Positions 3,649-61,450 of a DNA stretch of 64,000 bases are shown one piece after another. Both the position numbers and the translations under genes were made by a program. This DNA is from a virus (Duplodnaviria; Heunggongvirae; Uroviricota; Caudoviricetes). Numbering within the stretch: the stretch's first letter is position 1; every line of letters begins with the position of its first letter. Below the pieces are notes generated by a model. It was given only the letters and a program-made list of their open reading frames with translations, made no database searches and was not told the DNA's origin. Location of the stretch: positions 265,798 to 329,797 of IMG/VR virus record IMGVR_UViG_3300031992_004563. One strand, given 5' to 3'.

Positions 3649-3654
3649 TTTCGT

Positions 3655-3700
3655 GGATCTAGTGGGATTCGAACCCACGTGTTACATATGTTCCAACCTG
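3655..3700 (-). tRNA. tRNA-like 3-prime half (T-arm GTGGG-TTCGAAT-CCCAC plus acceptor strand and an encoded CCA). No matching 5-prime half or anticodon arm could be folded.
   Basis: The minus strand reads …GTGGGTTCGAATCCCACTAGATCCA. The T-arm is canonical and close to that of the tRNA-Arg at 13159-13232. The complementary 5-prime acceptor strand GGATCTA was not found upstream. Confidence 0.3.
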
Positions 3701-4140
3701 CTTTCTACATGTTTAGTTTGATTTAATTTTCGTATATTGCTAAACCTCAAACTAGCCAACAATATCTTAAGCTATTATAATTTCAAATTTGTTTAATAGC
3801 ATCACAAATTCTAATATCCAATATTTCTGCACCACTATAATCAATTCACCCTTGGATTATGGGTTTGAGTGATGTATGGTGAAATTACCTTGTAACTTCA
3901 TTAAGCGTGATCTTACTGTACTTCAGATCAAGCAGCCATAGCGTATTCATCTTCGCCATTTATTATTTTCAAAGAACATTTATTAGACGCATATCTTTAT
4001 GGCGTCACATGCTTACAAATCAAAATCAATGCAGTCAAAACCAAATAGACCCATAATTTTAATTTATATATTTATTATAAACAAAAACTGTAAAAAGTTT
4101 CAAAAATAAATATAAAAATAAAAATTTATTTTTGAATAAA

Positions 4141-4450: not shown

Positions 4451-6601
4451 ATGTCAAAAAAATATACAAATAAAAGTAAATTATTAGGAAAGATTGGCAC
4501 TGAAAATTATAGAGTATCAAATTGCCCAGTACATTTACCTAAAGAAAATGTCAAGTTTTTTATGGCAATGCAAGATGCAGGAAATAAAGATCCATTTTCT
4601 TCTAATACATGGAGTAATCAAATTACGCCTGATTGGATGAAACCATTTCATGAATCTGTTGTATCTGCAATTTCTAAAGGAATTAAAAATGCATTAAATG
4701 AATCAAATGGTCTTGTGTCTGAAGAAGAATGTCTAAGAGCAAATTTGGTTTGTTTATATGATCATTCAGAACAAAATAATTTCTTTATTATTAAAAATCC
4801 TAGTGTAGAAGATATTAAAGAAATTGGAACATTTCATGATAGATATTATTGGCATAAAAAGGATACAGACGATAAAAAAGATCGTTTGATTGCTGATATG
4901 ATACAATGGGCGTTTTATAATATTAAATTAGATGGGTTAACTAGTATAGAATATGATGATGAAAATGTTAATTTATGTAGTTTTGGTTTAAAAAATGATG
5001 AAGAACTTTATAAATCTGTATATAAATTATATTTAGATAAAGATTAGTGGGCAGATAGTTCAAAATTATTAGATAGATTAAAATATGTTTTAAATATGAT
5101 TGATCAAAGTGTATTAAATAAACGAGATCATTATGGTTTTGGACTTGGTACACGTTTGTCTTTCATTGAATATTTTTTTAAAGAATATAAAGAAAATTTA
5201 GAACGATATAATACAAAAGACGATAAAGATTATTATTTAAAACGCATAAAAGAAAAGGAACAAATATTGTCTTCATATGATTCATTTAAATCATATATGA
5301 AAGATTAGGTTAAAAAATCTGTATGTGCTGGTGATTCTAGTAGTGCTACACTATTATTGAATTTAAAAACTGAATAGATTTTTGATCAAGCACCTAAAAC
5401 AATAATTCATTTTATAAAAACATTTCAAGAATATAAAGATGAAATGTATAAAATTTTAACCGAAGATCATAAATTAAAAGAATCTCAAGAATTTGATTTT
5501 AATTCTTTATTAAATGAATCACAAGTAAATTTAGCAATTGATGATTTTGATTATAGTGATGCATCAATAAATAATGTAAAATCTGATATAATTGATGTTA
5601 ATGATGTCATTAAACATAGAATTGAATTAAATAAATTTAATGAGTTATGTGAAAAGGTAAGTGTTTTCAATATCACTTCTAATGAATTTTATCAAATTTG
5701 TAAATTACATAATTAGTATGGTTTTAAATATACTGTAAAAGCAGGCACAGATGGCAATGCTGAAGAATTATCAGAATTAATTGAATACATTACAAAAAAT
5801 ATTGATACAGAAGTTGATTTAAACTGGATTGATGTTACTTAGATAACTGATATGTCTTATCTTTTTAATAAATCATAGTTTAATGGTGATATTTCAGAAT
5901 GGGATGTTTCTAATGTAAAAGATATGGCACATATGTTTGACCAATGTGCATTTGATGGAACATTCTCAGATATTTCTGGGTGGGATGTTTCCAAAGTTGA
6001 ATGGTTTGATGGAATGTTTTCATATTCGCCATTCAATAAACCAGATATTTGCAACTGGAATATGAAAAATGCTCATAGTACGACTGGAATGTTTACTGAT
6101 TCAGTATTCTGTCAAGATATTTCAAATTGGAATCTTCCATTAGGATGTGATGTAACTCATATGTTTAGCGCAGATTTCCCACAAAGTTATAAGCCAAAAG
6201 TTATTAAAGACATAATTAAAAAAGCTAAAGACGAATTCGATGAAGATGTTGAAGATTAGGAATCATTTGAAGATGAAAGAATTCGTAATGGATATGATGA
6301 TGACACAGATGATTCGTATAATGATGAAGATGATTCAGATGTTAATGAAGGATTTGTATTTGAAGGCGAATGTGCAGGAGATTGTGGTGGTGTTTCAGGA
6401 TCTTATAATATACCAATGAATACTGTTGGTGTTGGAAATATTGTTCCTGCTGGTACACCCGCAATGACAGGATCACAACAAGCAAATGATTCTTAGAATG
6501 GTTCTGGTGATATTACCATTCCCACATCGTCGAAGAAAAAATCAAAAACTAAAATAAAAGAAAAAGAAACTTTATACTTTCCTATCGCTGTCAAGAAATA
6601 A
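4451..6601 (+). CDS. BspA/DUF285-type repeat surface protein (repeat FNGDISxWDVSxVxxMxxMF) with an acidic C-terminal region; 8 in-frame TAG codons
   Basis: Four track ORFs (4451, 5096, 5444, 5924) all lie in frame 2 and are separated only by TAG codons (5045, 5306, 5381, 5714, 5840, 5876, 6257, 6494). There is no TAA or TGA in frame until 6599-6601. The DUF285-like repeats are clear in the 5924-6259 segment. Confidence 0.6.
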
Positions 6602-13141: not shown

Positions 13142-13158
13142 AATTTTGTAATTTTTTG

Positions 13159-13232
13159 TACCTCGAGTGGGATTCTAACCCACAACTCCCATCTTAGAAG
13201 GATGGTACTCTATACAGTTGAGTTATCGAGGC
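13159..13232 (-). tRNA. tRNA-Arg (anticodon UCU, reads AGA)
   Basis: The minus strand reads GCCTCGA-TA-ACTC-AACTGTATA-GAGT-A-CCATC-CTTCTAA-GATGG-GAGTT-GTGGG-TTAGAAT-CCCAC-TCGAGGT-A. Acceptor, D, anticodon and T stems all pair, and loop positions 34-36 are TCT. Confidence 0.7.
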
Positions 13233-19147: not shown

Positions 19148-21727
19148 ATGAAAAAAGAAAAGATTAATACTGATAGATTATTTGGAAAGCCTTTAAACGA
19201 AACAGACATTTATTAGGTTCCACCAACAGATGAAAATGGAAATGTTCATATGTTTTCAATTGATTAGCTTGCTGCAATTTATGAAGCAATGAAGCCATTA
19301 TTAAATGCATAGGAATTATAGGATTTTAATGATATGTCTCCTGAAGATTAGGAACAATATTTAACAGGCTTTGGTGCAAATATATTAGAATGGAAAAAAG
19401 CTAAAGAAGCAGCAAATGATCCTGACTCAGACGAATAGAAACCTGGTATGCCAGGACAACAACCACCAGAAGATGGTTTAGACCATTGGCAACCAGTAAA
19501 AAAATCAAAAAATAAAAGTCAACAAGGATAGCAACCAAAAGGCAATAAAGTTTATTCAGATATTCAAGAAGAACTTGATAAAATTGAATAGGAAAATCAA
19601 TAGGCTGAATAGGATGCAGAAAATAGTAACAATCAATCTGCTGATAGTAGTGATGCATAGGATATTGCAGATAACGCAAATGATATTGCATCTTCTGCAC
19701 AAAAAATGGCAGATGCAGCTTAGGCCGCTGCTGATGCTGCACAAAATGCGGCAGATTAGGCAGATGAAAATGCTCGTGATTCCGGCTCACCAAAGGATGT
19801 AAGAAATGCTGATAGATCTTAGAATTCAGCAGATGCTGCATAGGATTTAGCAAATCAAGCAAAAGAAGCAGCTGAAAGAGCATCTCAATTAGCAAAGGAT
19901 GCATAGGAAGCTGCTGATAGAGGTGATACATTAGAAGCTGAAAGAAAAACTAAAGAAGCGTATGATGCGGCTAAAGAAGCATCTAATAAAACTAGAGCCG
20001 CATAGATAAATGCAAAAGATGCATTAAATGCAAGTAAATAGACAGCACAAAATCAACCTGGCCAAAATGGTCAAGGACAATCAGGTCCAGGTCAAAATGG
20101 TCAAGGACAATCAGATAGTGATATTAATAATATGTCTGCATAGGATGCTGCTAATGCTGCTCAACAATCTGCTACAAATGCTCAAAATTAGGCAAATCAA
20201 GCATAGGCAGCCGCTGATGCAGCATAGGAAAAAGCAGATACATCTGGAAGTTCGGCTGATTAGGCAAAAGCAGATGCGGCTCAATAGGCAGCCGATAATG
20301 CTCAATCAGCTGCTGATTAGGCATAGGCCGCTGCTAATGCTGCTCAACAGGCAGCCGACAATGGAAATACATCTTCAGCACAACAATAGGCAAAAAATGC
20401 AAGAGATGCTGCAAATAGTGCTCAACAATATGCTCAGTCTGCTCAATAGAATACTGGACAATCTGGTCAACAATCTTCACAAATGTCAGGAGGCGAATCA
20501 GGTCAGAAAGGACAAAACAGTGAATAGGGTTCTGGCCAAGAATCTAATTCACAAGGCCAAAGCCAAGCTGGTTCAAATTCAGGTCAATTAGATCCAAATG
20601 GACGTCATGGATAGATTGGTAAACCTGGACAATAGGGCCAACAAGGACAACCTGGTGATATGGATGATGCCGATACAGACCCAACATTAAAAAAGGTTGA
20701 TAATAAATTTGACCAAAATGGCGAAATTGTTCATAAAAGGCCTGTAAGTCTTGATATGCCATTTGATGGAAATGATTTTGTTGCAAATGATGAAGAAATG
20801 AGAGAAAAATGTCGTGAAATGGCAGAACGTGCAGGTCAGCCACTTGACGCAGATGATTATATTTCTCCACAAGAATATGCTACAAGAAAATATCAAGAAG
20901 CAAAATCTGCATTACAAAAATGGAAACAAAATACACCTGGTTCTGCTGGTAATCCTCCTGGATATCTTACAGAAGTAATGGATAGATTATTTGCTACAGA
21001 AATTGATTGGCGTGATTTAGTTCAAGAATTTATGACAGATAAATCACCTGAAGATATTATTGATGTATGGTCTAAACGCCGTATGGGATTGCCTGATACA
21101 CACCCATTCCATAGAGGAAGATATTTGCATCCTTATGAAGATTTTGAAGAAAGAAGATCAGGTATTGCACAAGTATTCTTCTTAGTGGATGCATCTGGTT
21201 CTATGGGTGTAACTGCAGGTGATGGCAGAAATATATTTGAACATATTATGTCAGAACTTATTCAAATTGAATTATAGGTTAAAATTAAACGTTCTGCATA
21301 TGCAACATTTAATGCTGGTCATATTTATAGAGATGATATTTTCACTTGGACATATCAAGATGCAATGGATGAAGAATCATTAATGGAAGAATTTAAATTA
21401 CCTTCTGCTGGTGGTGGAACATCTGCAATAGAGGGTATTAAATCTATTCAAGAATATGAAGATGTATATAGTACAAATGACCCATGGACATTATTAATTG
21501 TAGTAACTGATGGTGGTGACTATTATGAAGGATTAAAAGATATTTGTAAAGACCCAGAATAGGTTGAACATATGTTATGGATTATAACAGCCGAAGGCGA
21601 AGATTATTTTAAAGGCAGAATTAAAGCTTTAGGTGAACAAGGTGTTCCTAGTGATCATATTGTATGTGTAGATATTAATAAAGAATGGGGTGTAGATGAA
21701 GAAATGGTTAAAAAGAGCAAAAGATAA
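19148..21727 (+). CDS. von Willebrand factor A (VWA/MIDAS) domain protein with a long N-terminal Ala/Gln-rich low-complexity region; about 40 in-frame TAG codons
   Basis: ATG at 19148 is in frame 2 with track ORFs 20660-21277 and 21365-21562, and there are no TAA or TGA codons until 21725-21727. The MIDAS motif VFFLVDASGSMG is present. TAG codons replace CAA/CAG in parallel AAQ-AADNA repeats. Confidence 0.65.
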
Positions 21728-25292: not shown

Positions 25293-25763
25293 ATGAATAC
25301 AATATATATGACATCTGATAGTGAGAATAAGTTGAGGTCAATATATACAAATTTAAAAAACTATTATATATTAGATGTATAGTCTTTTATAAAAAGTTTA
25401 AATTTGGATATGAATAAACAAAGTAGTATATTCATTATTAATGATGAAATACAAACTTTAGTGAGTTCATAGTTGAAACTTAAAAAATATAAAGGTGTCA
25501 TATATATTAATCATCATTTATCAAAAGAATTATACAATTCATTTAAACTTTATTTTTAGAAATGTGGAGAAGATATTAAAATTGTCTTAATTGACAATGG
25601 ATAGTTTCCAAAGCATTAGGATATAATGGATATATTTGATGAAGTTATTTTCTATGAAAGATTTAGAAAAAATAAAATCGTAGAATTTAATGGTTTTGAT
25701 AAAAATCAAAATGACGTCATTAATAATATTAATATGGATGAAAATGATTTAGGCGATGAATAA
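25293..25763 (+). CDS. Small hypothetical protein with 5 in-frame TAG codons
   Basis: ATG at 25293. Frame 0 is open to TAA 25761-25763 apart from the TAGs. TAATG overlap with the next gene. Confidence 0.4.
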
Positions 25764-27907
25764 TGAAATACTTTACATTTGAATAGTTTAGTCGTTCTGA
25801 TACAGCAAAAAGGAAAAATATAGATAATTCTGTTCCGTCTGATCTTAGACCACATGCTGAAGAATTAATTAATAATATATTAGATCCTTTACGTGATGCG
25901 TGGGGTAGTGATTTATATTTAACCTCTGCCTATCGTGGTTATGCACTTAATAAAGCTGTAGGTGGTTCTACGACATCTGCACATTCTTATGCGTATGCAG
26001 CTGATTTAGTTCCAAAAAATGGAAAAACTCTTGAATTTAAAGAGTTTGCAATGAAATGGCTTCTTAATAATGGAGTCAATTTTGATTAGTTTATTGATGA
26101 ATATAGTGGAAAAAGTTCATGGGTTCATATAGGTATTCGTAATGGTAGTGGAAATTAGAGAAAACAATATTTAAAATACCTTAATGGAAAATACACATCA
26201 ATTAATCCAAATATATATAAGCCTGGTTCTAACTCACAATCTTCTACGTCATCTGCGTTACCAAGTTTTGGTGGTTCATCTTCTAGTTCTTCACAATCAA
26301 CAGGAATTAATGTTACTGAAATAACAACCGGTGGCAGTACACAAACTGGTAGCACTGAAGGATTATTAAAAGGTCGTTCAGTCTATTTAAAAGATATAGA
26401 TTATGAAGGCATTAAAGCAAACGATGTTTTTGCAAAAGATGAATCAGGTGAGCCATTGCTTGATGAAAATGGAGATTTTATTATTTCTGACGCATATTTA
26501 ATGGATGGTGCAAATGAATCTGAATCTGATGCTATTGAAAGCACTGATGAATTAGATCCAGAACCATTTGATTTTGATATGTCATCTATTACTATTGAAA
26601 ATACTGAATAGATGAAAGGCATTCAATATAATGCCGATGGTTCATATGTTGTTAAATAGAGTAAAACCATTCAAGAAATAATGGCATTAGTTCAACAATG
26701 GTGGCAAATGATTCAATCTTTAAAGAAAATTGATTTTAAACATATTTAGGATTCAATTAAAAACGTAAAAGCAGAGACTGAAAATGCAGAGACTCCATCT
26801 ATTAATGCAATGGTTTATATGAAAGCAGCATTCGATATGTATGGACATGCATATAGAGAAGGAATGACTTGCCCAATTTGTGGAAAGAAAGCAAGATTTT
26901 TACCACCTGGTGGATATTGTTCCATTGAGTGTTTGTTAAAAGCTGTAAAAGATAAATCACTTGCATTTCTAATGTCTCCTAATGATAAGTATGGTTGGCT
27001 TCAAGAAATTATTGATCAATTATGTGCGGTATTGGATTTAACAAATTTATTAATTAATTCAATAGTATTAATTCCTGACATTATTAGAGAATTGGCATAG
27101 CTTCCATAGGAATATAAAGATTATGTATAGGCAAAAATTGCTGAAGGGTTTGCAGAATTATAGGAATTAATTCAAAAAGCAATGGTTAAGAAAAATGAAT
27201 TGCTTGCAAAAATATTAAAACCTATTAATTTTGGTATTATTGCAAAACCTGTTGCAATGGCAATGCAGGTAATTGAAGTTATTAGAAATGCATTATAGGT
27301 TGCATAGGAAGCATTTAATATGGCATTTGATGTTGTTAAAATGATATTAAGTAAATTATCATTACCAAGTGTTGCACCAGGATTAGTTCTTCCAGCAGAA
27401 TCATTTGCGTGGTCATTAACTCCAAGATCATTTATAAGCCCAATGCCATATACATGCCCAGATGCAGGTAAAATATTTGTGGTTTTGCCTGGTGGCAGCG
27501 GTGCACCTATACAGGGTTTAAAACCTTTGTTGCCATCAGCACTATAGGATCTTAATATGGAATCAATAGATTCAGTAATTTAGGGATTATTTCCACCATT
27601 AACGCCAATGGATTATTATTTAGAGCCAGAATTATTTCAAATAAGATATCTGTTCAGTGATCAAAGTGATTTAGTTTTTTAGATTAGGCAACAATTAGAA
27701 GATTTTTTAAGATGCGGTCCAGATTATCTTCCAAAATTTGAAAATTTATTACCAATTAAAATGTTTACATTTGGAAAAGGCACACCTAATGAAATATAGA
27801 TTCCACTTCCAAATATGGGATATTTATGGTTTTTATTAGGATTACTGGATGCATGGGCACCTCATAGCCAATCAATGGTAGGAAGTATATTAAATCCTGC
27901 AATATAA
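25763..27907 (+). CDS. Large protein with an N-terminal peptidase M15 (D-Ala-D-Ala carboxypeptidase/lysin-like) domain; many in-frame TAGs; candidate tail-associated lysin or tape-measure-like protein
   Basis: Motifs LTSAYRGYALNKAVGGSTTSAHSYAYAADL match the Zn-dependent M15/VanY-type fold. Track ORFs 26810 and 27320 and the TAGs at 25784 and 26087 are all in frame 2. Terminates at TAA 27905-27907. Confidence 0.55.
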
Positions 27908-29803: not shown

Positions 29804-30877
29804 CTACCATATAGCTTTAAATATTTCAACTACATTATTTTTAGTATCATCAAAAGATTTTTTAACAGTGTTTTTTATAACTGTTCCTGCCTCTTTTAAT
29901 TCTCCTAAATCTGATTTACTTAATTTAAAATCAGTTGAACTACTTTTCTTTTTAGCAAATTTTCTTCCGCCTGACATATATTTTTCTTCTAATGTCATAT
30001 CATTAGATATTTTTGTACTCATTATAAGAGACATATGTTGTTCACCATATTTATTGACCAATTTATTCCATTGTTTTTCAGTAAATACTCTATTGCCAAT
30101 ATTATATGTCGGGTGTTGTTCACTATATTGATTATCATAATAAACCTTTGTTGTATTTTTACCATCTGAAACTATAAAATATAATACCATTTCATATACA
30201 TCATAACCAACATTTTTAATTGTCCATTTTACATATGATGTAGTATAATTAATTTTCTTTTTAGTATTAATATCTGTTTCATATGAGTTATTATAAAAAG
30301 GTGCATATGATTCTTCTAAGAACATTCCGTATCCATTTGTTGCAAAAACCAAATTTGTTCCAATAAGAGACTTTAAATAATTATAGTGTTTTTCAACAAT
30401 GAAAGGAAAATTCTCCATATCAATTCGTGTATATTTCTTTTCACCATTGCATATATATTTAACTTTTTCTCCTGTATTCAAATCAGTTAAATATAATACC
30501 CAATCATCATAGTCTTCAATACGTTTAACATCATTAACATAAAATCTATGTCCTTCTATCCAACGTTTATGCGTACCGGCAACCATACCATCTAAATAAT
30601 TAAACGCATCATATTTATATTGATTTGCTGTATACATTAAACCAAAGTCTTCTTTCCAAAATCTGTCATAATCCATAAAATTATGATAGTGCTCTATAGG
30701 TTGATCAAACAAATCAGTATAATTTGAACCGGTTAAAGGAACAAGATATAATGTTTCACCTTTTAAAGATGAAATGTTTTTAAACTGATAATTTGTTTCT
30801 TTGTTAAAAGACGAATTTGCAAATACACAAATAATATTTAAACAATAGACCGAAAAAATTAAAAAAAGGCGTTTCAT
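29804..30877 (-). CDS. Secreted hypothetical protein (signal peptide)
   Basis: N-terminal MKRLFLIFSVYCLNIICVFA. Promoter motif upstream. Confidence 0.5.
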   Translation of the reverse strand: MKRLFLIFSVYCLNIICVFANSSFNKETNYQFKNISSLKGETLYLVPLTGSNYTDLFDQPIEHYHNFMDYDRFWKEDFGLMYTANQYKYDAFNYLDGMVAGTHKRWIEGHRFYVNDVKRIEDYDDWVLYLTDLNTGEKVKYICNGEKKYTRIDMENFPFIVEKHYNYLKSLIGTNLVFATNGYGMFLEESYAPFYNNSYETDINTKKKINYTTSYVKWTIKNVGYDVYEMVLYFIVSDGKNTTKVYYDNQYSEQHPTYNIGNRVFTEKQWNKLVNKYGEQHMSLIMSTKISNDMTLEEKYMSGGRKFAKKKSSSTDFKLSKSDLGELKEAGTVIKNTVKKSFDDTKNNVVEIFKAIW

Positions 30878-31012: not shown

Positions 31013-32965
31013 TTACTTCACCTCTTTAAACTCTACATTATCCTTTTTAGATTTTGTATGTTTTACAGGTTCTTCTGTTGAAGGTGTTTCAACCTCTACT
31101 GGAATTTTTGATTCCTCTGGCTTTGGCAACGATGTTGTAGGTTGATTTTTACCAAGAAGATTCAAAATTTGAGGTTTAAGACCATCATTAACCATGCTAA
31201 CCATTGGAGCAAACTTCTCAAGCCAAGTCTTAGCAAATTCAGCGCTTGTATTCTTATCACCATAAACTGTAACATTGCCAAGTTGAATATGTTCAAGAGT
31301 CTTAGATTGTGCTTCAGCAATACCCTTCCATTGATCAGTCATCATATATTGAACAACTACCTCAGGATTTCCACCAGCGGTTTCAACCATTTGCTTAAAT
31401 GCAAGTGCTGGTGCCAATGCAATTTGTTGTTGCTGTTCAGCCTCTGCCATAAGAGATGCTCGTTTACCCTCAGCTTGTGCAAGCAAAATAGATTTTTCAC
31501 CTTCTGCATCTGCAAGTTTCTTTTTACGAATTGCTTCAGCTTGTGCTTCAGCCTCTTTCAAAATTTTTGCAGCGGCTGCTTCTGCCTCAAGTGTTGCAAC
31601 AGCCTTTGTCTGTTCAGCTTTAATTGTTGCTTGCTCTTTTTCTTTTTGAGCCTTAACAATCATTGTTGCTTGTAACTCGGTTTCTTGAGCTTTAGCCTTC
31701 ATTTCATTAACTTTCACTTGTTGTTCTTGCTCAGTTTGTGCAACGGCCATTCGAGCTTCAACCTTTGCCATACCAGTAACCTTTTCTGCTTCTGCCTCAG
31801 CCTTGCCTGCTTCTGCTTTTGCTTTAGCAACATCAATAGTTGCGGTCTGTTCTGCTACACCTGCCTTTTTATTAGCCTCTGCTGCTTTTTGACGGCGTTC
31901 AGATTCATATTCAGCAATGCTTGCTTGTTTCTTTTGAGTTGCCTCAGAAATCTTTGCCTCTTTTAATTGTTCTGCCTCAGCTGCTTTTGCTTCAGCATCA
32001 GCCTTTGCTTTAGCAACATTAACAGCTGCAATGGATTCTTGCTCTGCTTTTGCAGAATCAGCTTTTTGACCAGCAGTAGCAACTGCAATTGTTTGTTCTG
32101 CCTCAGCGTCGGCAACACCTTCAGCACGTTCCTTTTCAGCTTGCGCCAATTGAATTGCCTGATCCTTACGAGCTTGTGCAACTGCAACCTCTTGTTCCTG
32201 AACTGTTTTAGCAACTGTTGCCAATTGTTCACGCTCAGCCTCTGCAACTTGAATTGCTTCCTCCTTTTTAGTATTGGCAATTTTAATTTTACCTTGCTTT
32301 TCTTGCTCTGCAATATCTGCTTCTGCTTGCGCCTTTGCTTGAGTTGCGGCTTTCTTACCCAAGTTTACAATATAGTTTGCGTCATCATCAATATTAGAAA
32401 TATTAATATTAATAATACCAAAACCAACTTTATTCAACTCCAACTCAATCTTTTGCTTTGCATTCTCAAGGAACTTATTACGGTCAGCGTTAATTTCCTC
32501 AATAGGCATTGTTGCCATAATAGCACGAGTTTCACCAATAAGAATATCCTCAATTTGGCTATCCATTGCTCGTACATCAGAACTTAAGAAACGAGCTGCT
32601 GCATTTTGCATAAGGGTATCAGTTGTTCCAATACCAGTAATCAATGTTACAGGAATAGTTACTTTAATGTTTTGTGAAGATAGACCTGTAATATCGGCTT
32701 TAATCTTGTGAGGTACTAAACTCATCATTTTATATTCCTGGATAACTGGCCATACAAAAGTACCACCGCCATGAATAATTTTTGATGTAAGGATACGATC
32801 TACAGATTTACCATTTTCATCAAATGATTTCTTTGTGCCAGCCTTACCAAATACTACAAGAATTTGGTCACTCGGGCAACGACGATAGCGAGATAAAATC
32901 CAAATAGTTGTCAAAACAACCACAAGTACAATAACTGCTACAGTAATAAAAATTGATACATTCAT
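31013..32965 (-). CDS. Flotillin-like SPFH/band-7 domain protein with a long Ala/Glu/Gln-rich coiled coil
   Basis: N-terminal TM helix, an SPFH-like domain, then an EA-repeat flotillin-type region. 650 aa. Antisense ORFs in this region are low-complexity artefacts. Confidence 0.75.
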   Translation of the reverse strand: MNVSIFITVAVIVLVVVLTTIWILSRYRRCPSDQILVVFGKAGTKKSFDENGKSVDRILTSKIIHGGGTFVWPVIQEYKMMSLVPHKIKADITGLSSQNIKVTIPVTLITGIGTTDTLMQNAAARFLSSDVRAMDSQIEDILIGETRAIMATMPIEEINADRNKFLENAKQKIELELNKVGFGIININISNIDDDANYIVNLGKKAATQAKAQAEADIAEQEKQGKIKIANTKKEEAIQVAEAEREQLATVAKTVQEQEVAVAQARKDQAIQLAQAEKERAEGVADAEAEQTIAVATAGQKADSAKAEQESIAAVNVAKAKADAEAKAAEAEQLKEAKISEATQKKQASIAEYESERRQKAAEANKKAGVAEQTATIDVAKAKAEAGKAEAEAEKVTGMAKVEARMAVAQTEQEQQVKVNEMKAKAQETELQATMIVKAQKEKEQATIKAEQTKAVATLEAEAAAAKILKEAEAQAEAIRKKKLADAEGEKSILLAQAEGKRASLMAEAEQQQQIALAPALAFKQMVETAGGNPEVVVQYMMTDQWKGIAEAQSKTLEHIQLGNVTVYGDKNTSAEFAKTWLEKFAPMVSMVNDGLKPQILNLLGKNQPTTSLPKPEESKIPVEVETPSTEEPVKHTKSKKDNVEFKEVK

Positions 32966-32998
32966 AATTTTTAAATATTTAAAAGTTTATAAAATTTG

Positions 32999-33523
32999 TT
33001 ATACATAAAATTTTCCATTATCAGCTGATATAATAATTACTTCATCGCCAAGTTTATGTTTTTCATTCAATGAATACACTTTAATTTCTTGACCATTGAA
33101 ATCTGGAATATTTACATAATATGCATTTTCTTCATCTGTGCATACAATTGAAACTACACCTTTATGCCCAATAAAATCTTCTGGTGTTTGACCAACAGGT
33201 TCATGCCGTAATTTGAGCAATAATATTCCTATATAAAATAGAATTACTGTAAATGCAATTCCAAGTACAATAGCAATCAAATAATCATACCAAACAAGTG
33301 TACCATTATATGATACTAATGACAACCATCCAGCAAAACCCATTAAGAAATGAATAATTCCTTTAAATGATAGAATATCACCCCATGACAAATCACCAAA
33401 TCCATCACCATCAAAGTCAATATCCGTATCAAAATCAGTTCCACCAAACATGGCAATAAAAAATTGAATAAGGAAAATTGAATAGGCTATAATAGCCAAA
33501 GAATAATAAATTGTTGTTAACAT
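32999..33523 (-). CDS. NfeD-like membrane protein (YuaF/YqiJ-type), the usual partner of SPFH proteins
   Basis: Polytopic N-terminus with a DxDxD-rich loop and a C-terminal soluble OB-like domain. Lies immediately upstream of the flotillin gene. Confidence 0.6.
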   Translation of the reverse strand: MLTTIYYSLAIIAYSIFLIQFFIAMFGGTDFDTDIDFDGDGFGDLSWGDILSFKGIIHFLMGFAGWLSLVSYNGTLVWYDYLIAIVLGIAFTVILFYIGILLLKLRHEPVGQTPEDFIGHKGVVSIVCTDEENAYYVNIPDFNGQEIKVYSLNEKHKLGDEVIIISADNGKFYV

Positions 33524-33628: not shown

Positions 33629-35023
33629 TCACTTATTATCTTTGAGATCATTAAGAAAATTCCAAATTTTATTAATTACTTCATCATGTTCTTGTATCTT
33701 TTTATTAAGATCCGTATGAATATCAGTAATTGCATCATTAACAATCTTAACAACCGGCTTAGTAACAGGAGTAGTATACTCTTTTTTAGGCTCAACATAT
33801 TTATCAAGTTGATAGCTATAAAATTCTTTATAATTTGATACATGAACATTTAATTTGCTACCAAATCGTACAAGATACTTAGTTTTTGTACCACTATCAC
33901 ATCGATGTCGAATAATTTCATCAATAACTCCATGTGTGCCTTTCAAACTGCCAGTTTTAACCACAACTTTATCACCAACTTTAAATTTATTTACAAAGCG
34001 CGGTTCAGATTTAACTGTATCCTGTGGTCTAAATTCAACCATTTGAATAGGATTGGTTTTTGCCGGTTTTTCAGCATCCTTTTTTGTATCACTTTGCTTA
34101 ATATCGTCATTTACAACATCTGCAATAACATCCATAATAGAATTAAATGTTAAACGGCCATCCTCATTAGCATTAAGAATATTATAAATGTCATGAAACA
34201 TTTCTTGTGTAATGGTATAAATTTTATCCTGACCAAGATTAAGTTTAAATATTGTAATTGTAAATTTAGACCCTGTAAAATTCTTACGATGCTTAAGCAT
34301 TACTGCATAATCCTTTGTCAATTCACGATAAAGTGTGCATTGTTCAGTTTCACACCAATGAGGGTTCTCAGTCTTAACATTTTTCTTAAGTTCATCAACC
34401 AACTTTGACACACCTGATTTAACAGTTTCCTTTGCATCATTATAGGTCTTTTTAAATTTGTCAGAATCCTTTGTAAATGTTTCAACCTGATTTTTGGCAG
34501 AATTATAATAATCATTTACAATATCCAAAAAATCATCTAACTTATCTTGAAGATTTGCATTTTGTGCAATATCCAAAAGTTGTGAAACATATTTACGAAC
34601 ATTTTGACAGCCGTCTTTAATATCATCAATTTTAAAATTGAATACTTTATTAAGCAATCTCATTTCATTTCCAGCAAATACAGCATATTGTTTATCTTCA
34701 TAAACATAAAGATCATGTTCACTAGTATAAAGAATACGTTCAACACCAACACATTTATGTACTAATACATTTTGATATTTAACTGTTGAATTTTTACCAG
34801 CATTTGGCGTAGAAGGGGTAATTGTAATTTTTACAATAACTGGGTCATTTGGATGAGATTTGCTTGCAGCATATCCAAGAATAGTGTTTTGATCACGACC
34901 CTCACTTACATTTTTAATATATTGATCTGTTGAAATAACAAGATCATAAGTACCATCTTTTTCCTGATACTCTACTACATATTTAGGTTTAAATGACATG
35001 TAATCTAAAAATTTCTTTGCCAT
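33629..35023 (-). CDS. Hypothetical protein containing a KOW-like motif (FKVGDKVVVKTGSLKGTHGVIDEI)
   Basis: 464-aa ORF. Confidence 0.45.
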   Translation of the reverse strand: MAKKFLDYMSFKPKYVVEYQEKDGTYDLVISTDQYIKNVSEGRDQNTILGYAASKSHPNDPVIVKITITPSTPNAGKNSTVKYQNVLVHKCVGVERILYTSEHDLYVYEDKQYAVFAGNEMRLLNKVFNFKIDDIKDGCQNVRKYVSQLLDIAQNANLQDKLDDFLDIVNDYYNSAKNQVETFTKDSDKFKKTYNDAKETVKSGVSKLVDELKKNVKTENPHWCETEQCTLYRELTKDYAVMLKHRKNFTGSKFTITIFKLNLGQDKIYTITQEMFHDIYNILNANEDGRLTFNSIMDVIADVVNDDIKQSDTKKDAEKPAKTNPIQMVEFRPQDTVKSEPRFVNKFKVGDKVVVKTGSLKGTHGVIDEIIRHRCDSGTKTKYLVRFGSKLNVHVSNYKEFYSYQLDKYVEPKKEYTTPVTKPVVKIVNDAITDIHTDLNKKIQEHDEVINKIWNFLNDLKDNK

Positions 35024-35470: not shown

Positions 35471-36049
35471 ATGAAAGTAATTATTATTGAGGGGCCTGAT
35501 AATACTGGTAAAAATACATTAATAAATCATGTTTTGGATAATAATGAAATTGTGAAAATTATTCATTGCAGTAAGCCAAAACAATTGGACAATGTTTTAT
35601 ATCATCAATTCATTTCATTTAAAAAATTAGCTGAAGAAGCAATTAAAGATTATAGTTTAAATTCAGATGAGGTTTTAATTTATAATCGTTATCATATTGG
35701 CGAATATGTTTATGGTCAATTATATAGAGATGAAAATCCTGAACAAATTCTTGAAGTAATTCATCTTATTGAAGATACAATATTAAATGCAATTCCTCAA
35801 GATAATATTTCATATATTCAATTGTTATCTCGTTCAGCAAAACTTTTACAAAACAATGATGATAATAAATCTTTATCTAATGCAAGACTTGATTTAATTG
35901 AAAAAGAAAATCAATTATTTAAAGAAGCTTTTGAAAAATCAAAATTTAAAAACAAACATATAATTTATATCGATAAAGAAAATACAGATACATTTAAAAC
36001 AAGAGAACAAATTATTGACGAATTTGATATTTTTACAAAAAATGATTAA
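35471..36049 (+). CDS. P-loop (d)NMP kinase-like protein (thymidylate/deoxynucleotide monophosphate kinase family)
   Basis: N-terminal IIIEGPDNTGKNT P-loop in the typical dNMP/thymidylate kinase context. Confidence 0.5.
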   Translation: MKVIIIEGPDNTGKNTLINHVLDNNEIVKIIHCSKPKQLDNVLYHQFISFKKLAEEAIKDYSLNSDEVLIYNRYHIGEYVYGQLYRDENPEQILEVIHLIEDTILNAIPQDNISYIQLLSRSAKLLQNNDDNKSLSNARLDLIEKENQLFKEAFEKSKFKNKHIIYIDKENTDTFKTREQIIDEFDIFTKND

Positions 36050-36058
36050 TAATAGTTT

Positions 36059-36778
36059 ATGTTAAAAACTGAAGATATTAAAAATCTATTAAAAGAAAAA
36101 TATAAAAATGAAGAATTTAGAGTAACTAAATCTGGTGTAAAAACTGTTGAACTTCAAGGTATTCAGTTTGAAGCTGATAAAGATTCTATTATTCGTGAAC
36201 CAAATTATGATTATGCAAATAGGGAAATTCAATGGTATGAATCACAATCATTAAATGTTAATGATATTCCAGGTGGAGCACCAACAATTTGGAAACAATG
36301 TGCAGATGTAAATGGTGATATTAATTCAAATTATGGTTGGATGATTTATTCAAAGGAAAATGGCTCACAATATAATAACTGCGTTTGGCAATTAGTTAAT
36401 GACCCAACTACAAGAGAAGCTTGTATGATTTATAATAGACCAAGTATGCATGTTGATGCAACATCAAATCATAAACATGATTTTTGTTGTACTTATGCAG
36501 TTCAATGTTTCTTAAATGAAGTTAATAGATATCACACATCGCCAGATGGTGATAAAGTTAAAATTGGTTTAGATTATTATACATTAGATTATATTGTATA
36601 TCAAAGAAGTTGTGATGCAGTATTTGGTTATAATAATGATGTTTTATGGCATACATATGTACGTGATAAAATGCTAAAAGATTTTAATGAAATGGGTTTA
36701 AATGTTAAAAAAGGCATAATAAATTATAATTGTGGCAGTTTACATGTTTACGAGAGACACTTTAAGTTCTTAGACTAA
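36059..36778 (+). CDS. Thymidylate synthase/pyrimidine hydroxymethylase family enzyme, divergent (Cys-Cys in place of the canonical Pro-Cys-His)
   Basis: YQRSCDAVFGYNNDVLWH aligns with ThyA YQRSCDVFLGLPFN. The active-site region HDFCCTYAVQCF aligns with PPCHAFFQFYV. Confidence 0.6.
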   Translation: MLKTEDIKNLLKEKYKNEEFRVTKSGVKTVELQGIQFEADKDSIIREPNYDYANREIQWYESQSLNVNDIPGGAPTIWKQCADVNGDINSNYGWMIYSKENGSQYNNCVWQLVNDPTTREACMIYNRPSMHVDATSNHKHDFCCTYAVQCFLNEVNRYHTSPDGDKVKIGLDYYTLDYIVYQRSCDAVFGYNNDVLWHTYVRDKMLKDFNEMGLNVKKGIINYNCGSLHVYERHFKFLD

Positions 36779-41661: not shown

Positions 41662-43335
41662 TCAATTTTCATCTGGATTTTCTTCACCATATCTTTCTTG
41701 CATTTCATAATCTGATGTAACACCTTTATCCATATCTTCAGCTTCCTTACCAAGGAATTTCAAACATTTAAGTTTGAATGCTTCTGCTACAGGGTCATCA
41801 TTAATTCTAAGAACGATACCTTCACGAGGAAGTTCATTTTTACACATTGGTTCATTTTCTTCCATTCCAAAGTTTTTATCCTTTTTCATTCTAGAAAGAA
41901 CATTTTCATTCCAATGATTTCTAAGATCCAAATCAGGATAAAGATCTTTCATTAAGCCATTATACAAAATTGTAATTGGTTTAATTTTTGAAGCATCATT
42001 AGTATTATTTTCTTTATCACGTTTTTGAAGTGCAGGAATAAGAGTATGCAATGTATAATCATGTACATCTTGAACATTAAATTCATATACATCCCCATTT
42101 TCAAGTACATGTTTAATACGGTAAATCATTAAATAATTATCACCTGTTTTACAACCATAGTCATAAACTTTTCCACCAAGTGATTGGATTCCCGATGTAG
42201 AATTTGTTACATATCCACAAATTTCTCCATAAAATGTCATTCCTTGAGGAATAAAATCTTTAAGGATTTTGTAATATGTTGCCCAAATATCTACTCCATA
42301 AAAACCTCCAGACTTGCCACCATATTTAAATCTAAACAATGATTTAAATTTATCCCAAAAAGTAATTTCTGGTTCATTTTGGTTTTTACGTTTCTTTTTC
42401 TTAAACATTGATTTCAATGTGCTTGTAATATGAAGCCACCATGCATAAATTATTTGGTAAATAATTGCAATCATATTTTGATTTTTAATTACACCACGAG
42501 AGCTATAAATTACATCATAGCCTTCAGTAGTAAATTGCAAAACTTTAGGCAAATATACAAAAGCTTTTTCATACAAACCACCATACTTAGGTTTATGAAC
42601 TTTTACATTACCAAAAATCGCTGATGAACCATGTTCCTTAACGGTAATTGATACTGAAGTTTCAGGTTTAATTCTATTCATTGAACGTTGAAGTTGTTCA
42701 GTATCATAATGAAATGCAAATTGTCCAGGAATCATACGATCATATTTTTTAATTTGCTTTTCATGACGGCCTTTTTTAACTCCACCATTTCGGCCTTTTA
42801 CTTCAGGAACATATGCTTTTACAAACAAACGTTCACCTACAGTATCAAAATCTTCACCAAGATGTGCAGACCAATCAAAATTTTCCAAGTCTGCTTCGTA
42901 TTCACCCATTTGGTATGGAGAAATAAGATAACCCATTGACATTACACCACGAAGTTTCTTCATACGAACACGACAGTTCTTACCAAAATAACCTTTATTA
43001 AGATTCAAATAATGTTGAATCTCTTCTTCAGATGCATTTTGTTTTCTCATTTTTTCCAAATGAGGACCTACATCTTGATAATTTGAATTAAGTGTGATAT
43101 CATCAAATTGATTAGTTGAAGATAGAAACAAACTATCAAGTTGACATTCATTGGCTACATAAATCATATAGCTTCCTGTTTTAACCAAATCTTTACGAAC
43201 TACGATATCTCTGCCTTCAACCATCACTGTGGCAAGAAAATCGGAATTTTCAATTGGTGTCAATTCACCAATTTGAACAACAGTTGCACAATATTCATGT
43301 GACATGTCTTTTGATTGTGATAATACATTTTCCAT
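41662..43335 (-). CDS. ATP-dependent RNA ligase-like protein (N-terminal OB-like domain as in DraRnl/NgrRnl-type ligases; motif I KEHGS; motif IV EGIVLR; motif V KLKCLKF)
   Basis: N-terminus …YCATVVQIGELTPIENSDFLATVMVEGRDIVVRKD… resembles the N-domain of Rnl5-type ligases. Nucleotidyltransferase motifs are present. Confidence 0.55.
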   Translation of the reverse strand: MENVLSQSKDMSHEYCATVVQIGELTPIENSDFLATVMVEGRDIVVRKDLVKTGSYMIYVANECQLDSLFLSSTNQFDDITLNSNYQDVGPHLEKMRKQNASEEEIQHYLNLNKGYFGKNCRVRMKKLRGVMSMGYLISPYQMGEYEADLENFDWSAHLGEDFDTVGERLFVKAYVPEVKGRNGGVKKGRHEKQIKKYDRMIPGQFAFHYDTEQLQRSMNRIKPETSVSITVKEHGSSAIFGNVKVHKPKYGGLYEKAFVYLPKVLQFTTEGYDVIYSSRGVIKNQNMIAIIYQIIYAWWLHITSTLKSMFKKKKRKNQNEPEITFWDKFKSLFRFKYGGKSGGFYGVDIWATYYKILKDFIPQGMTFYGEICGYVTNSTSGIQSLGGKVYDYGCKTGDNYLMIYRIKHVLENGDVYEFNVQDVHDYTLHTLIPALQKRDKENNTNDASKIKPITILYNGLMKDLYPDLDLRNHWNENVLSRMKKDKNFGMEENEPMCKNELPREGIVLRINDDPVAEAFKLKCLKFLGKEAEDMDKGVTSDYEMQERYGEENPDEN

Positions 43336-54189: not shown

Positions 54190-55359
54190 TTAATATGATT
54201 CAATATTAAGATCATGGAAACATTGTGCAATTTCCGTTTGATCACCCATTACTTTGCCAGCATCGTCACTTACTTTAATACAATTAACCATTGGGCTATT
54301 TGCATTCATTCGACACATTGTAAGTTTCATTACAATATTCTGACTTGGCGTATTGGTATCACATGTAAGATTAGTTCCAATACCGGCAGAACATTTAATT
54401 TTGCCTTTGCAATAATCAGCAATTGCTTTAAATTTTGGGAATGTTAATGCATTAGAGAATACAATTGTTTTGTCCTTTGGATCAATTCCCTTAGATTTAT
54501 AAGCTTCAATTGCCATTTGGGTGAATTCATACTCATCACCTGAGTCATGACGAACACCATCAAACAATTTTGCATGCTTCAAACTAAATGTATCGAAGAA
54601 TGCTTTACTTCCATAAGTATCTGTCAATGCAATACCAAGAGCACCATCATAAACAGATACCCAATCCTCATAGGCTTTATAGTTTGCATTGCGATAACCA
54701 AACTGTGCGCCATGGAACATTACCCACTCATGAGCAACAGTGCCAATAGGCTTCATATCATACTTCATTGCAAGGTGTACATTGGATGTTCCTACACAAT
54801 AAAGTGCATTTTCTTTAAGACGTTTTACAACGGCATCCTGAACGGCATAACTGAAACGACGACGAGTACCAAACTCACTAAATACCAATCCATGCTCATT
54901 GGACAATGCAATTTTCTTATCGAGACGAGAAAGTACATCAGCCATATTAACGATATGAACACTATTAGAAATTTCAGATACAATTGCAAGACATGCAATC
55001 TCCCAAAGTGTTAAACTATAAAGTTTATCAGCTGCAGTAATATGCAAAATTTGACTATCATCAAGCCATGCAGTTACTTTAGTTGAATCAAATCTAAATC
55101 CACGAAGCCATTCCCAATAGAATTGAGGAATATATGTAATATGATTTTTACACCAATAAAACTCTTCGTCAGTAAGACTTAAATTTTCAAGTTCTTTAAT
55201 ACTTTTGATAATTCTATCCAATTCACCACGAGTTCGTTTAACTCGATTTCGGTCAAAAAACTCAAATACACCTTCAGCTTCAGGATAAAGCTTCATGTAT
55301 GCATAACTCATACTAAGTTTGTACAAGTCAGTGTCCAAAATACTTTTAATTACTCCCAT
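54190..55359 (-). CDS. pncB: Nicotinate phosphoribosyltransferase
   Basis: Aligns with E. coli PncB at ILDTDLYKLSM, FSEFGTRRRFSYAVQDAVVKRL, IGTVAHEW, GIALTDTYGS and VRHDSGDEYEF. Confidence 0.85.
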   Translation of the reverse strand: MGVIKSILDTDLYKLSMSYAYMKLYPEAEGVFEFFDRNRVKRTRGELDRIIKSIKELENLSLTDEEFYWCKNHITYIPQFYWEWLRGFRFDSTKVTAWLDDSQILHITAADKLYSLTLWEIACLAIVSEISNSVHIVNMADVLSRLDKKIALSNEHGLVFSEFGTRRRFSYAVQDAVVKRLKENALYCVGTSNVHLAMKYDMKPIGTVAHEWVMFHGAQFGYRNANYKAYEDWVSVYDGALGIALTDTYGSKAFFDTFSLKHAKLFDGVRHDSGDEYEFTQMAIEAYKSKGIDPKDKTIVFSNALTFPKFKAIADYCKGKIKCSAGIGTNLTCDTNTPSQNIVMKLTMCRMNANSPMVNCIKVSDDAGKVMGDQTEIAQCFHDLNIESY

Positions 55360-55362
55360 ATC

Positions 55363-56835
55363 TTATTTTAAATTAAAATGTTGTTCAATATATTCATATA
55401 ATGCTTCTGGAGTGTTTTCAATAATGTTATCCAAAAGAGCATCTTTCATCATTTTTTTAATTTCACCAATTTGTTTACCTGGTTCAAGATGGTATTTCTC
55501 CATAAGATCATTGCCAGTTACGCATGGTTGGAACATACGAACATAATCCTTATGAGCAATATCTTCAATACGTTCCATTAATTCATTATATCTAAATTGG
55601 AAGTTTTGTTTCTTGTTTTCGTTCTTTGTCGTAATATCAGAATTAGCAAGAATCATCAATTCCTTGATATAACCATTTGCATCATTAACCAAACGACGAA
55701 CACCTGCATCGGTTACTTCATCTCCACAAATTGCTTGAGGACGCATATGAAGTTGAACCATAAGAGCAGTAAATTTCATATTTTCATCCTGAGGCATTTT
55801 TAACCGTTTAAATATAGATTCCACCATCTTTGCACCTACATATTCATGATTGTCAAAAGAATAACCATTGTGGGCATCATAATGACGTGTAGGTATTTTA
55901 CCTATGTCATGTAATAGTGCGGCAATACGAAGATATACATTCTCAGTTTGTAAACAAACACTTCGTAAAACATCTAATGTATGCCAATAGATATTTTTAT
56001 GTTTATCTGTATATCGAGGACCACACTTACCAGTAGTATCAAGTGCATCCACTTCAGGCAAAAACTTTTTAAGTAATCCAGTATTCTTTAAAATCTCAAT
56101 GCCATCAGCTGCATAATCTGAACTCATAATTTTTAAGAATTCTGTCATAATACGTTCAGCTGAAATAATATCCAAACGATCCAAATTTTTTACAATTGCA
56201 TTATATGTAGTTTGTTCAATGCCAAAACCAAGTTTACATGCAAAACGAACTGCACGTAACATACGCAATGGGTCATCAGAAAAAGTAATATCTGGATTAG
56301 TAGGAGTTTTAATAGTACCAGTTTTCAAATCTTCAATACCACCAAATGGATCAACCAATTCTCCAAAATGATCACTATTAAGGCAAATAGCCATTGCATT
56401 AATTGTAAAGTCACGACGAAGTTGGTCATCTTGAAGAGTGCCTTCCTCAACAATAGGTTTACGACTACCACGCTCATAAGATTCCTTACGTGCTCCGACA
56501 TATTCTACTTCAAAATCACCAAATCGAACCTGTGCAGTTCCAAAGTTTTCAAAAATAGACAATTTAATATTTTTGAAATTAGTTTGTGTTTTAAGATATT
56601 GCTCAAAATGACGAGCCATTACTTGCCCTTTTCCAACTACAACGACATCAATATCGTCATTAGGTCTGCCAAGAAGCAAATCACGAACATAACCACCAAC
56701 AACATAACAAGGATATTGAAGGTGATCAGCCACATATTTGATATTGCATAAAACTCCAAAAACTTCTTTATTTCGTTTTTGAATTTCTTTTAAAATACTT
56801 TCTTTGTCTAATTGTTTTAACATATATTTTTTCAA
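55363..56835 (-). CDS. cca: tRNA nucleotidyltransferase (CCA-adding enzyme, class II head domain plus HD domain)
   Basis: GGYVRDLLLGRPNDDIDVVVVG, RRDFTINAM and HD motif HTLDV…LLHDIGK. Confidence 0.8.
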   Translation of the reverse strand: MKKYMLKQLDKESILKEIQKRNKEVFGVLCNIKYVADHLQYPCYVVGGYVRDLLLGRPNDDIDVVVVGKGQVMARHFEQYLKTQTNFKNIKLSIFENFGTAQVRFGDFEVEYVGARKESYERGSRKPIVEEGTLQDDQLRRDFTINAMAICLNSDHFGELVDPFGGIEDLKTGTIKTPTNPDITFSDDPLRMLRAVRFACKLGFGIEQTTYNAIVKNLDRLDIISAERIMTEFLKIMSSDYAADGIEILKNTGLLKKFLPEVDALDTTGKCGPRYTDKHKNIYWHTLDVLRSVCLQTENVYLRIAALLHDIGKIPTRHYDAHNGYSFDNHEYVGAKMVESIFKRLKMPQDENMKFTALMVQLHMRPQAICGDEVTDAGVRRLVNDANGYIKELMILANSDITTKNENKKQNFQFRYNELMERIEDIAHKDYVRMFQPCVTGNDLMEKYHLEPGKQIGEIKKMMKDALLDNIIENTPEALYEYIEQHFNLK

Positions 56836-61156: not shown

Positions 61157-61450
61157 TCACGCTAAAGTTTTTAATCTTGTAAATAACAAATCTTTATCAC
61201 CCAAACATGCTACGGCTGTAATGGTATTATTTAAATCTGGTTCTTCGAAGAAACTAAAGTCATATTCATGTTCTTTCATTTCTTCAATCTTTTTATCTAA
61301 TCGGCAATTAAGATAAATTAAAGTTGTATTTAAATCATACTCACCTGGGTGTTCAAGAATCCATTGTGCCAAAGCATGTCCACCTTGAACAGATGCATAC
61401 ATAGGTGCTAACCTACGATTGCATAAAATATACATTCTTTTTTCTTCCAT
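61157..61450 (-). CDS. Small PTH2-like protein (degenerate; …SVQGGHALAQ…TAVACLGD…)
   Basis: Weak pattern similarity to PTH2 in a 97-aa ORF. Confidence 0.3.
   Translation of the reverse strand: MEEKRMYILCNRRLAPMYASVQGGHALAQWILEHPGEYDLNTTLIYLNCRLDKKIEEMKEHEYDFSFFEEPDLNNTITAVACLGDKDLLFTRLKTLA

Follow-up and report, generated by a model that had tools for sequence, protein, structure and literature searches.

Why would a bacteriophage carry the genes of a flotillin and of an NfeD-type membrane protein side by side, and what might it gain from them? This question is raised by a stretch of 64,000 nucleotides (nt) from a virus of the class Caudoviricetes (positions 265,798 to 329,797 of the IMG/VR record IMGVR_UViG_3300031992_004563), the whole of which is called the window below. 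On its minus strand an earlier note, made from the letters alone, had recognised a flotillin-type SPFH protein of 650 amino acids (aa) beside an NfeD-type partner, arranged as in the cellular operon. Every test run agreed with this identification. The arrangement was confirmed as well: the partner gene is followed on the same strand by the flotillin gene after a gap of 33 nt, and the order was the same in all cellular loci examined. We regard the identities of the two proteins as nearly certain. The pair comprises the following features (TM, transmembrane; AF2, AlphaFold2; pLDDT, predicted local distance difference test):

32999-33523, minus strand: nfeD-like gene, 174 aa, upstream member of the pair (ATG start, TAA stop)
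33374-33448, minus strand: acidic loop between the first and second TM helices of the partner, residues 26-50, FGGTDFDTDIDFDGDGFGDLSWGDI (alignments; low pLDDT)
33002-33181, minus strand: OB-fold (NfeD-type, putative partner-binding) domain, residues 115-174 (structure neighbours)
32966-32998, minus strand: intergenic spacer, 33 nt, operon-like, without a terminator-like site inside
31013-32965, minus strand: flotillin-family SPFH gene, 650 aa, downstream member of the pair (ATG start, TAA stop)
32891-32962, minus strand: N-terminal membrane anchor of the flotillin, residues 2-25 (hydropathy; AF2 helix, pLDDT 86-91)
32297-32872, minus strand: SPFH/Band 7 domain, residues 32-223 (Pfam PF01145)
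31379-32374, minus strand: helical (coiled-coil) region rich in Ala, Glu, Lys and Gln, residues 198-529 (composition, AF2 helices)
31016-31276, minus strand: C-terminal region from the NVTVY strand (residues 564-568) to the F-K-E-V-K tail (646-650) (alignment)
31016-31030, minus strand: F-K-E-V-K tail (conserved F/x-E/D-V-K ends also at the C-termini of the flotillins of L003, L015, L036, L049, L062 and L086)

The hidden Markov model (HMM) check with Band_7 (PF01145), on which the earlier note had made its flotillin claim depend, gave a clear result, since the model matched residues 32-223 with 83.9 bits (cut-off 23.6; E 1.8e-23). Among the PDB sequences, only human flotillin-2 and flotillin-1 were found at E<=1e-3 (E 5e-15 to 1e-7). 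Foldseek placed chains of flotillin complexes (9l3g/9bq2) on ranks 1 and 2 (E 8e-14), and all of the top 34 matches belonged to the SPFH family (flotillin, prohibitin, stomatin, HflK/C, erlin, QmcA). The sole NCBIfam match was FloT (NF058507). With 143.5 bits, where 700 are required for an equivalog, the protein is a member of the flotillin family and not a FloT orthologue. In PHROGs, it matched only phrog_200, annotated as 'lipoprotein'. The N-terminus is hydrophobic (Kyte-Doolittle maximum of ~3.0 over 19 residues, residues 3-24). In the AF2 model, a monomer built on 35 homologues, a TM helix (2-25) is followed by the alpha/beta SPFH domain (27-195; pLDDT mostly 63-87 per 10-residue block) and by helices 198-340, 350-432 and 441-529. 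Ala, Glu, Lys and Gln together account for 68% of residues 206-500 (Ala 27%, Glu 16%), which do not contain any Pro.

For the partner, three TM helices (2-25, 53-72 and 78-105) were predicted, followed by a C-terminal beta-barrel (120-174; pLDDT ~88). This barrel is a five-stranded OB fold, whose closest structural neighbours are C-terminal domains of NfeD proteins. The HMM check that the earlier note had proposed for NfeD (PF01957) formally failed (13.7 bits versus 29.1; E 0.075), although the correct segment, residues 115-174, was hit. The model, however, also misses the Bacteroides partner and a Priestia protein named 'NfeD family protein' by PGAP, and hence the low score reflects the model rather than the phage protein. 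A profile of the phage partner family found 2,245 relatives among 1.84 billion representatives, and 15 of 43 sampled distant relatives matched PF01957 (best E 1.5e-6). Using hhalign, the family aligned over its full length with the partners of Bacteroides finegoldii (99.9%; E 5.8e-31) and of Acidobacteriota (98.5%), and over the OB domain only with Priestia NfeD (59.7%; E 8.9e-5). By three independent lines the 174-aa protein is thus, judged from its sequence and predicted fold, a short form of NfeD. Neither Pfam nor NCBIfam gave a partner match above threshold, and none was obtained in PHROGs. A ClpP-class serine protease domain was not detected with Pfam and NCBIfam either, and 174 aa are too short for the long form of NfeD. 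When the PDB sequences were searched with the profile of the partner, nothing beyond TM-helix noise and YuaF at E=1 was obtained. YqiJ (DUF1449) was considered as an alternative identity and rejected: the partner did not match PF21001 or PF07290 at E<=10, and hhalign against YqiJ gave a probability of 4.6%. E. coli YqiJ itself matched both the YqiJ_N and the YqiJ_OB models.

In the acidic loop of the partner, which has the pattern D-x-D-x-D-x-D-G-D, D34, D36, D40 and D44 are invariant within the phage family, and a D-x-D-x-D run is also present in the partners of Acidobacteriota and Bacteroides (loci L007, 3387-3989, and L095, 5410-5907). As a separate observation, the alternating aspartates, DFDTDIDFDGDG, resemble D-x-D-x-D-G cation-binding loops, with a weak FG-GAP match (E=2).

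Selection on the pair, and the carrier phage

Both genes are under purifying selection. Two related loci, L120 (flotillin 90% identical) and L121 (79%), stem from independent assemblies of other samples and have kept the whole neighbourhood, which rules out a mis-assembly. Compared with them, the ratio of nonsynonymous to synonymous substitutions (dN/dS, omega) was 0.12 and 0.17, respectively, for the flotillin gene, and 0.22 and 0.32 for nfeD. Together with the presence of the same pair in 80 of 80 related viral loci, this shows that the two genes are not chance open reading frames (ORFs). The GC content was ~32% in both 2-kb segments covering the pair and ranged from 25 to 36% in the window; a break in composition is therefore not apparent. 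Scans for sigma-70 promoters and terminators gave counts equal to those of shuffled sequence. Most of the related loci in phages have a gap of 2-15 nt between the two genes.

The flotillin gene also contains an island of divergence. Between positions 31966-32965 of the window and 6001-7000 of L120, nucleotide identity was 77-87%, while the flanks were 96-99% identical; the change is abrupt and coincides with the start codon of the flotillin gene. The synonymous rate dS reached 0.50 in the flotillin gene versus 0.04-0.13 in its neighbours, and omega was 0.05-0.27 along the gene. High dS combined with low omega fits the replacement of a diverged allele by recombination, and not relaxed or positive selection. 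The island thus suggests such an allele replacement.

The carrier is a Lak-like megaphage of Bacteroidota, with a Lak-type capsid, a large AT-rich genome and reassignment of TAG. Over the full length, its capsid protein (506 aa; 62406-63926) shows 63.4-63.7% identity to that of Prevotella phage Lak in 15 genomes. Proteins identical to the flotillin and its partner were found on three contigs, and the exact sequences of both on a contig of 497,886-498,037 bp. Recoding of TAG has been described in Lak phages (PMC8346664). The neighbourhood of the pair comprises the following features:

33629-35023, minus strand: upstream flank gene, 464 aa (weak KOW and apolipophorin-like matches)
29804-30877, minus strand: downstream flank gene, 357/359 aa (signal-peptide-like N-terminus MKRLFLIFSVYCLNIICVFANSS)
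25763-27907, plus strand: Peptidase_M15_3 gene, 714 aa (16 in-frame TAGs; N-terminal Pfam match, E 2e-13)
4451-6601, plus strand: DUF285-repeat gene, 716 aa (8 in-frame TAGs; Pfam E 7e-30)
25293-25763 (plus), 19148-21727 (plus) and 61450-62283 (minus strand): further possibly TAG-recoded genes
35471-36778 (plus), 41662-43335 (minus) and 54190-56835 (minus strand): host-like nucleotide/RNA genes
3651-4052, minus strand: full-length tmRNA (Rfam RF00023, 81.1 bits; ARAGORN tag peptide GEDEYAMAA)
13158-13232, minus strand: tRNA-Arg(TCT)

The Pfam matches of the M15 and DUF285 genes extend across TAG positions and can only be read with TAG as a sense codon. In these two genes TAG makes up 33-44% of the Gln-type positions; its share is zero in the flotillin pair, including the 48 Gln codons of the flotillin gene, and in the capsid gene. 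By their use of TAG, two classes of genes can be distinguished in the window. Translation of the 357/359-aa gene probably continues past its TAG 'stop' for two codons. For this gene and for the 464-aa gene, homologues were not found in deposited phages, including the 15 Lak genomes, and judged from these searches both are orphans confined to the Lak-like lineage here. The 464-aa gene evolves fast (44% identity and omega 0.66 versus L121). The surroundings of the pair include genes of nucleotide metabolism and a glycosyltransferase gene (thymidylate synthase, thymidylate-kinase-like, GT25), the thymidylate synthase being a 239-aa gene that is Pfam-annotated in L120 and L121. The host-like set of the window comprises genes for thymidylate-kinase-like, thymidylate synthase, RNA ligase, NAMPT-like and CCA-adding tRNA nucleotidyltransferase proteins; host-like nucleotide and RNA genes are typical of huge phages. 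Glycosyltransferases are encoded in the window as well.

Spread and origin of the cassette

The pair had been called uncommon in phages by the earlier note. This holds for deposited genomes, since a flotillin homologue was present in only three of 50,697 records and the pair in a single one, phage csAssE-Sib (OR575929; human gut; 151 kb). It does not hold for uncultivated large gut phages, as at least 273 viral contigs of IMG/VR contain relatives. At the nucleotide level, the locus did not match any of the 50,697 phage records. In the best 80 IMG/VR loci (46-69% identity; contigs of 9-435 kb, most above 90 kb and many of ~185 kb), the partner was located directly upstream on the same strand without exception. 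In the index of the assembly collection, 343 blocks contain allele P0123. A third conserved gene was not identified: apart from the closest relatives, none of the neighbours in the window recurs beside the pair in 93 loci. As the neighbours do not accompany the pair, the two-gene cassette is the unit of conservation. To see whether the other flotillin-bearing contigs are Lak-like, IMG/VR was scanned for capsid genes by a pattern-based search, which yielded no contig identifiers in common with them, such searching being uninformative here. In csAssE-Sib, the pair lies inside a replication module with helicase, primase and exonuclease.

Besides the cassette, we came across a flotillin-family gene of 473 aa in the T5-like Vibrio phage KIT04 (Demerecviridae; L002, 3929-5350), beside which an NfeD-like partner was not detected. 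With 98% bootstrap support, the KIT04 protein groups with a flotillin of a Pseudomonas megaplasmid. This suggests that the gene was acquired independently, in another group of phages and hosts.

In the literature searched, we did not find a discussion of a phage-encoded flotillin/NfeD pair; flotillin is unmentioned in the Lak papers among it, and nothing relevant was retrieved on 'csAssE'. A paper on a Perkons phage was rejected as a precedent because it concerns integration into host floA and not a phage flotillin. What is already known is the type of system, and phage copies are labelled 'flotillin' in GenBank and JGI. New are the occurrence of the pair in a lineage of Lak-like megaphages and the strict pairing of the flotillin with a divergent short NfeD on hundreds of contigs of large gut phages. 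The old-diverged Bacteroidales ancestry and the clade-specific longer helix and C-terminal tail are new as well.

As to the origin, the trees of flotillin and partner were broadly congruent. Both were neighbour-joining trees, a simple method applied to a small sampling, so that the origin drawn from them is a working picture. The main phage flotillin clade had 86% bootstrap support, with the window protein and L014 forming a tight pair, and was sister to Bacteroides, Phocaeicola and csAssE-Sib (63-65% support for the joint clade). The flotillins of the phage and of B. finegoldii share 38.7% identity over residues 1-593 of the former, and the phage partner is ~28% identical to its nearest cellular counterpart in Bacteroidales. 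The best cellular scores of the partner profile were obtained with Bacteroides (E 2e-34) and Phocaeicola (4e-33), followed by Cytophagales, Acidobacteriota and Priestia. The partner gene precedes the flotillin gene on one strand in csAssE-Sib, in five of five acidobacterial loci, and in the loci of Bacteroides, Phocaeicola, Persicobacter, Pseudomonas and Priestia. In this working picture the cassette would descend from a cellular nfeD-flotillin operon of the Bacteroidales type by an old transfer, followed by diversification in large gut phages. The earlier note had asked whether the pair was a recent acquisition from Bacteroidota. The source is borne out insofar as the nearest sampled cellular homologues belong to Bacteroidales; the recency is not, because identities of only ~38% (flotillin) and ~28% (partner) argue against it.

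The cellular Bacteroidales operons were taken from two PLSDB 'plasmid' records. One of them (L095; NZ_OY725925.1, 'plasmid 23' of B. finegoldii, 177 kb) has its flotillin gene amid truA, purC, ubiE and a shikimate dehydrogenase gene, and owing to these housekeeping genes it looks like a chromosome fragment. The other (L096; OY726012.1, 'plasmid 38' of Phocaeicola massiliensis, 163 kb) is unannotated over the stretch examined and was assumed by analogy to be a chromosomal fragment, too. A scan of cellular contigs returned only Acidobacteriota (38-42%) and one member of Rhodobacterales; as it was keyed to six exact octapeptides, it is unusable as a taxonomic survey.

Possible role of the pair

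Although by a small balance only, we favour the interpretation that the pair is a phage-supplied membrane scaffold, a host-maintenance module by which the host membrane would stay functional throughout a long infection. Closed cages built of SPFH proteins confine a membrane patch (PMC12478178). The QmcA-YbbJ cage is described as 26 SPFH-NfeD heterodimers on the cytoplasmic side (Tan 2024 via PMC13086221 and PMC12478178). In Staphylococcus aureus, FloA-NfeD stabilises unfolded membrane proteins independently of ATP, and NfeD binds the flotillin and supports its oligomerisation (PMC11222466). By analogy with the solved SPFH assemblies (flotillin, HflK/C, QmcA-YbbJ) and with the S. aureus pair, the N-terminal helix of the phage flotillin would be anchored in the host cytoplasmic membrane, and the long helical region would drive oligomerisation, by which a closed cage in the form of a dome would arise on the cytoplasmic side. 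The NfeD protein with its three TM helices would sit in the enclosed membrane patch, bind the flotillin via the OB domain, and promote or stabilise the oligomer. A basic stretch (SRYRRC) directly follows the anchor helix of the flotillin, and another one (KLRHEP) the third TM helix of the partner; these residues suggest a cytoplasmic location for the SPFH and OB domains and for the helices. Such a scaffold could maintain fluidity as well as stressed or unfolded membrane proteins at a stage when they are no longer replenished by expression of host genes. The lack of TAG would make the flotillin gene translatable by an unmodified host, before any switch of the code.

Several points weigh against this interpretation. 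The last argument is weak, since the capsid gene does not contain TAG either, so that a lack of TAG alone does not indicate early expression. The flotillin model reached good confidence only through the SPFH domain, its mean pLDDT being 59.5. The isolated C-terminus of the flotillin did not match the Pfam model Flot (PF15975) at E<=10. At 38-39% identity, it aligns across the stretches in which csAssE-Sib (38 bits) and B. finegoldii (30.6 bits) match Flot, and a cellular homologue from Persicobacter was without a match, too. Flot being undetected and the FloT score far under its cut-off, the protein may behave differently from the flotillins studied so far. Deletion of SPFH genes in bacteria often causes weak phenotypes (PMC13086221). 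Furthermore, a flotillin homologue was not found in the 15 deposited Lak genomes, which also lack the flank genes, and therefore the pair belongs to an accessory region.

This accessory nature would suit superinfection exclusion or anti-defence, in which an SPFH cage would sequester or mask an inner-membrane component required by other phages for DNA entry or by abortive-infection effectors of the host. The pair is predicted to be located in the membrane and is encoded in a variable region missing from the published Lak genomes, and its flotillin is a hotspot of divergence and recombination between genomes otherwise 96-99% identical, as is often the case for conflict genes. The PADLOC defence models, however, did not give a match at the locus, omega stayed low along the whole gene with diversifying selection not seen, and the architecture is that of a housekeeping cellular operon. 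We consider this explanation unlikely. It is also improbable that the cage encloses and regulates a host membrane protease, as HflK/C do with FtsH, and in this way steers the breakdown of phage or host proteins, although HflK/C-FtsH complexes were among the structural matches (7wi3, 9cz2) and a classical link exists between HflK/C and CII of phage lambda. Proteases confined within SPFH cages are known (PMC13220708); yet flotillins outrank HflK/C by sequence and by fold, the short NfeD partner does not possess a ClpP-type domain, and no protease gene adjoins the pair.

A role in lysis timing or as an assembly platform, with holins or with virion or replication components gathered by the scaffold at membrane foci, seems very unlikely. 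The helical wall of the phage clade is longer (363-418 versus 297 aa in Bacteroides), its clade-specific F-x-E-V-K tail could dock a phage partner, and the TAG-recoded M15 peptidase gene lies ~3 kb from the pair, but on the opposite strand and, unlike the pair, in the recoded class. Across lineages, the pair does not have a conserved neighbour among holin, endolysin or structural genes. Its surroundings of nucleotide metabolism and glycosyltransferase genes, and its position in the replication module of csAssE-Sib, point away from a virion or lysis role. That the genes do not belong to a phage at all, being mis-assembled bacterial DNA or a decaying passenger, is hardly conceivable. The cellular ancestry of the pair is clear; the locus with its neighbours, however, recurs in the independent assemblies L120 and L121, the exact proteins occur on three contigs and relatives on at least 273 viral contigs, the GC content shows no break at the pair, and both ORFs are intact with dN/dS well under 1. 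Distinctly unlikely, finally, is an enlarged, virus-specific vault around a patch of host membrane, serving as replication or entry site, as assembly platform, or for sequestering a defence or protease component. This idea builds on a helical wall that is 66-121 residues longer than in Bacteroides and on the clade-specific F-x-E-V-K tail. If true, the vault would be a virus-made membrane microcompartment in bacteria.

The scaffold interpretation bears on a broader problem, as the role of bacterial flotillins and their NfeD partners is debated and knock-outs often show little. An intact cassette under purifying selection in many large gut phages suggests a measurable benefit during infection. 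The phage cassette may therefore be used as a natural gain-of-function system for testing flotillin function, and membrane organisation and proteostasis would join the host-like functions of huge phages. With its graded coiled-coil lengths, it is also a marker cassette for testing how the size of SPFH cages depends on the length of their helices.

Comparison with known systems

One difference between the phage flotillins and their relatives concerns the helical region. Its span was measured from the motif NLGK(K/E)A at the end of the SPFH domain to the N(V/I)TV(Y/F/W) strand (NLGKKA and NVTVY in the window protein) and amounted to the following numbers of residues:

Acidobacteriota: 209
Bacteroides/Phocaeicola: 297
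csAssE-Sib: 330
window and L014: 363
other large phages: 395-418

The helical region of the window protein thus exceeds that of Bacteroides by 66 residues and that of the acidobacterial homologues by 154. The operon of B. finegoldii (WP_007757712 and WP_007757713) and P. massiliensis has the same gene order and spacing as that of the phage, and its proteins are the nearest cellular neighbours in the trees of flotillin and partner. Its partner shares the layout of three TM helices, acidic loop and OB domain. Compared with the Bacteroides protein, the phage flotillin has an insertion in the N-terminal part of the SPFH domain (~residues 45-60), ends with the F-K-E-V-K tail and has lost the Flot score. 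An F/x-E/D-V-K end was present in eight of nine listed flotillins of the main phage clade, and absent from the cellular proteins and from csAssE-Sib. It may be a docking peptide.

The csAssE-Sib pair, WOZ57345 ('flotillin family protein') and WOZ57346 ('transmembrane protein'), is arranged in the same order. The flotillin of this phage shares 65.5% identity with its B. finegoldii counterpart, groups with cellular Bacteroidales, keeps Flot and does not carry the F-x-E-V-K tail. To judge by these features, the pair is probably an independent, more recent capture. Priestia FloT is ~30% identical to the phage flotillin, and the partner and Priestia NfeD are recognisably homologous in the OB domain only. 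E. coli YqiK-YqiJ likewise consists of a flotillin-family protein and a small upstream multi-TM partner with an OB domain; YqiJ, however, belongs to other Pfam families (YqiJ_N, YqiJ_OB), and YqiK is only 23% identical to the phage flotillin. An SPFH domain and wall-forming helices are common to the phage protein and to the human flotillin-1/2 complex, HflK/C, prohibitin, stomatin, erlin and QmcA-YbbJ (8z5g); the helical region of the phage protein is roughly twice as long. Eukaryotic flotillins are anchored by a hairpin or by lipid, and not by an N-terminal TM helix as in the phage protein. They also act without an NfeD partner (PMC11222466), whereas the phage flotillin is encoded together with one.

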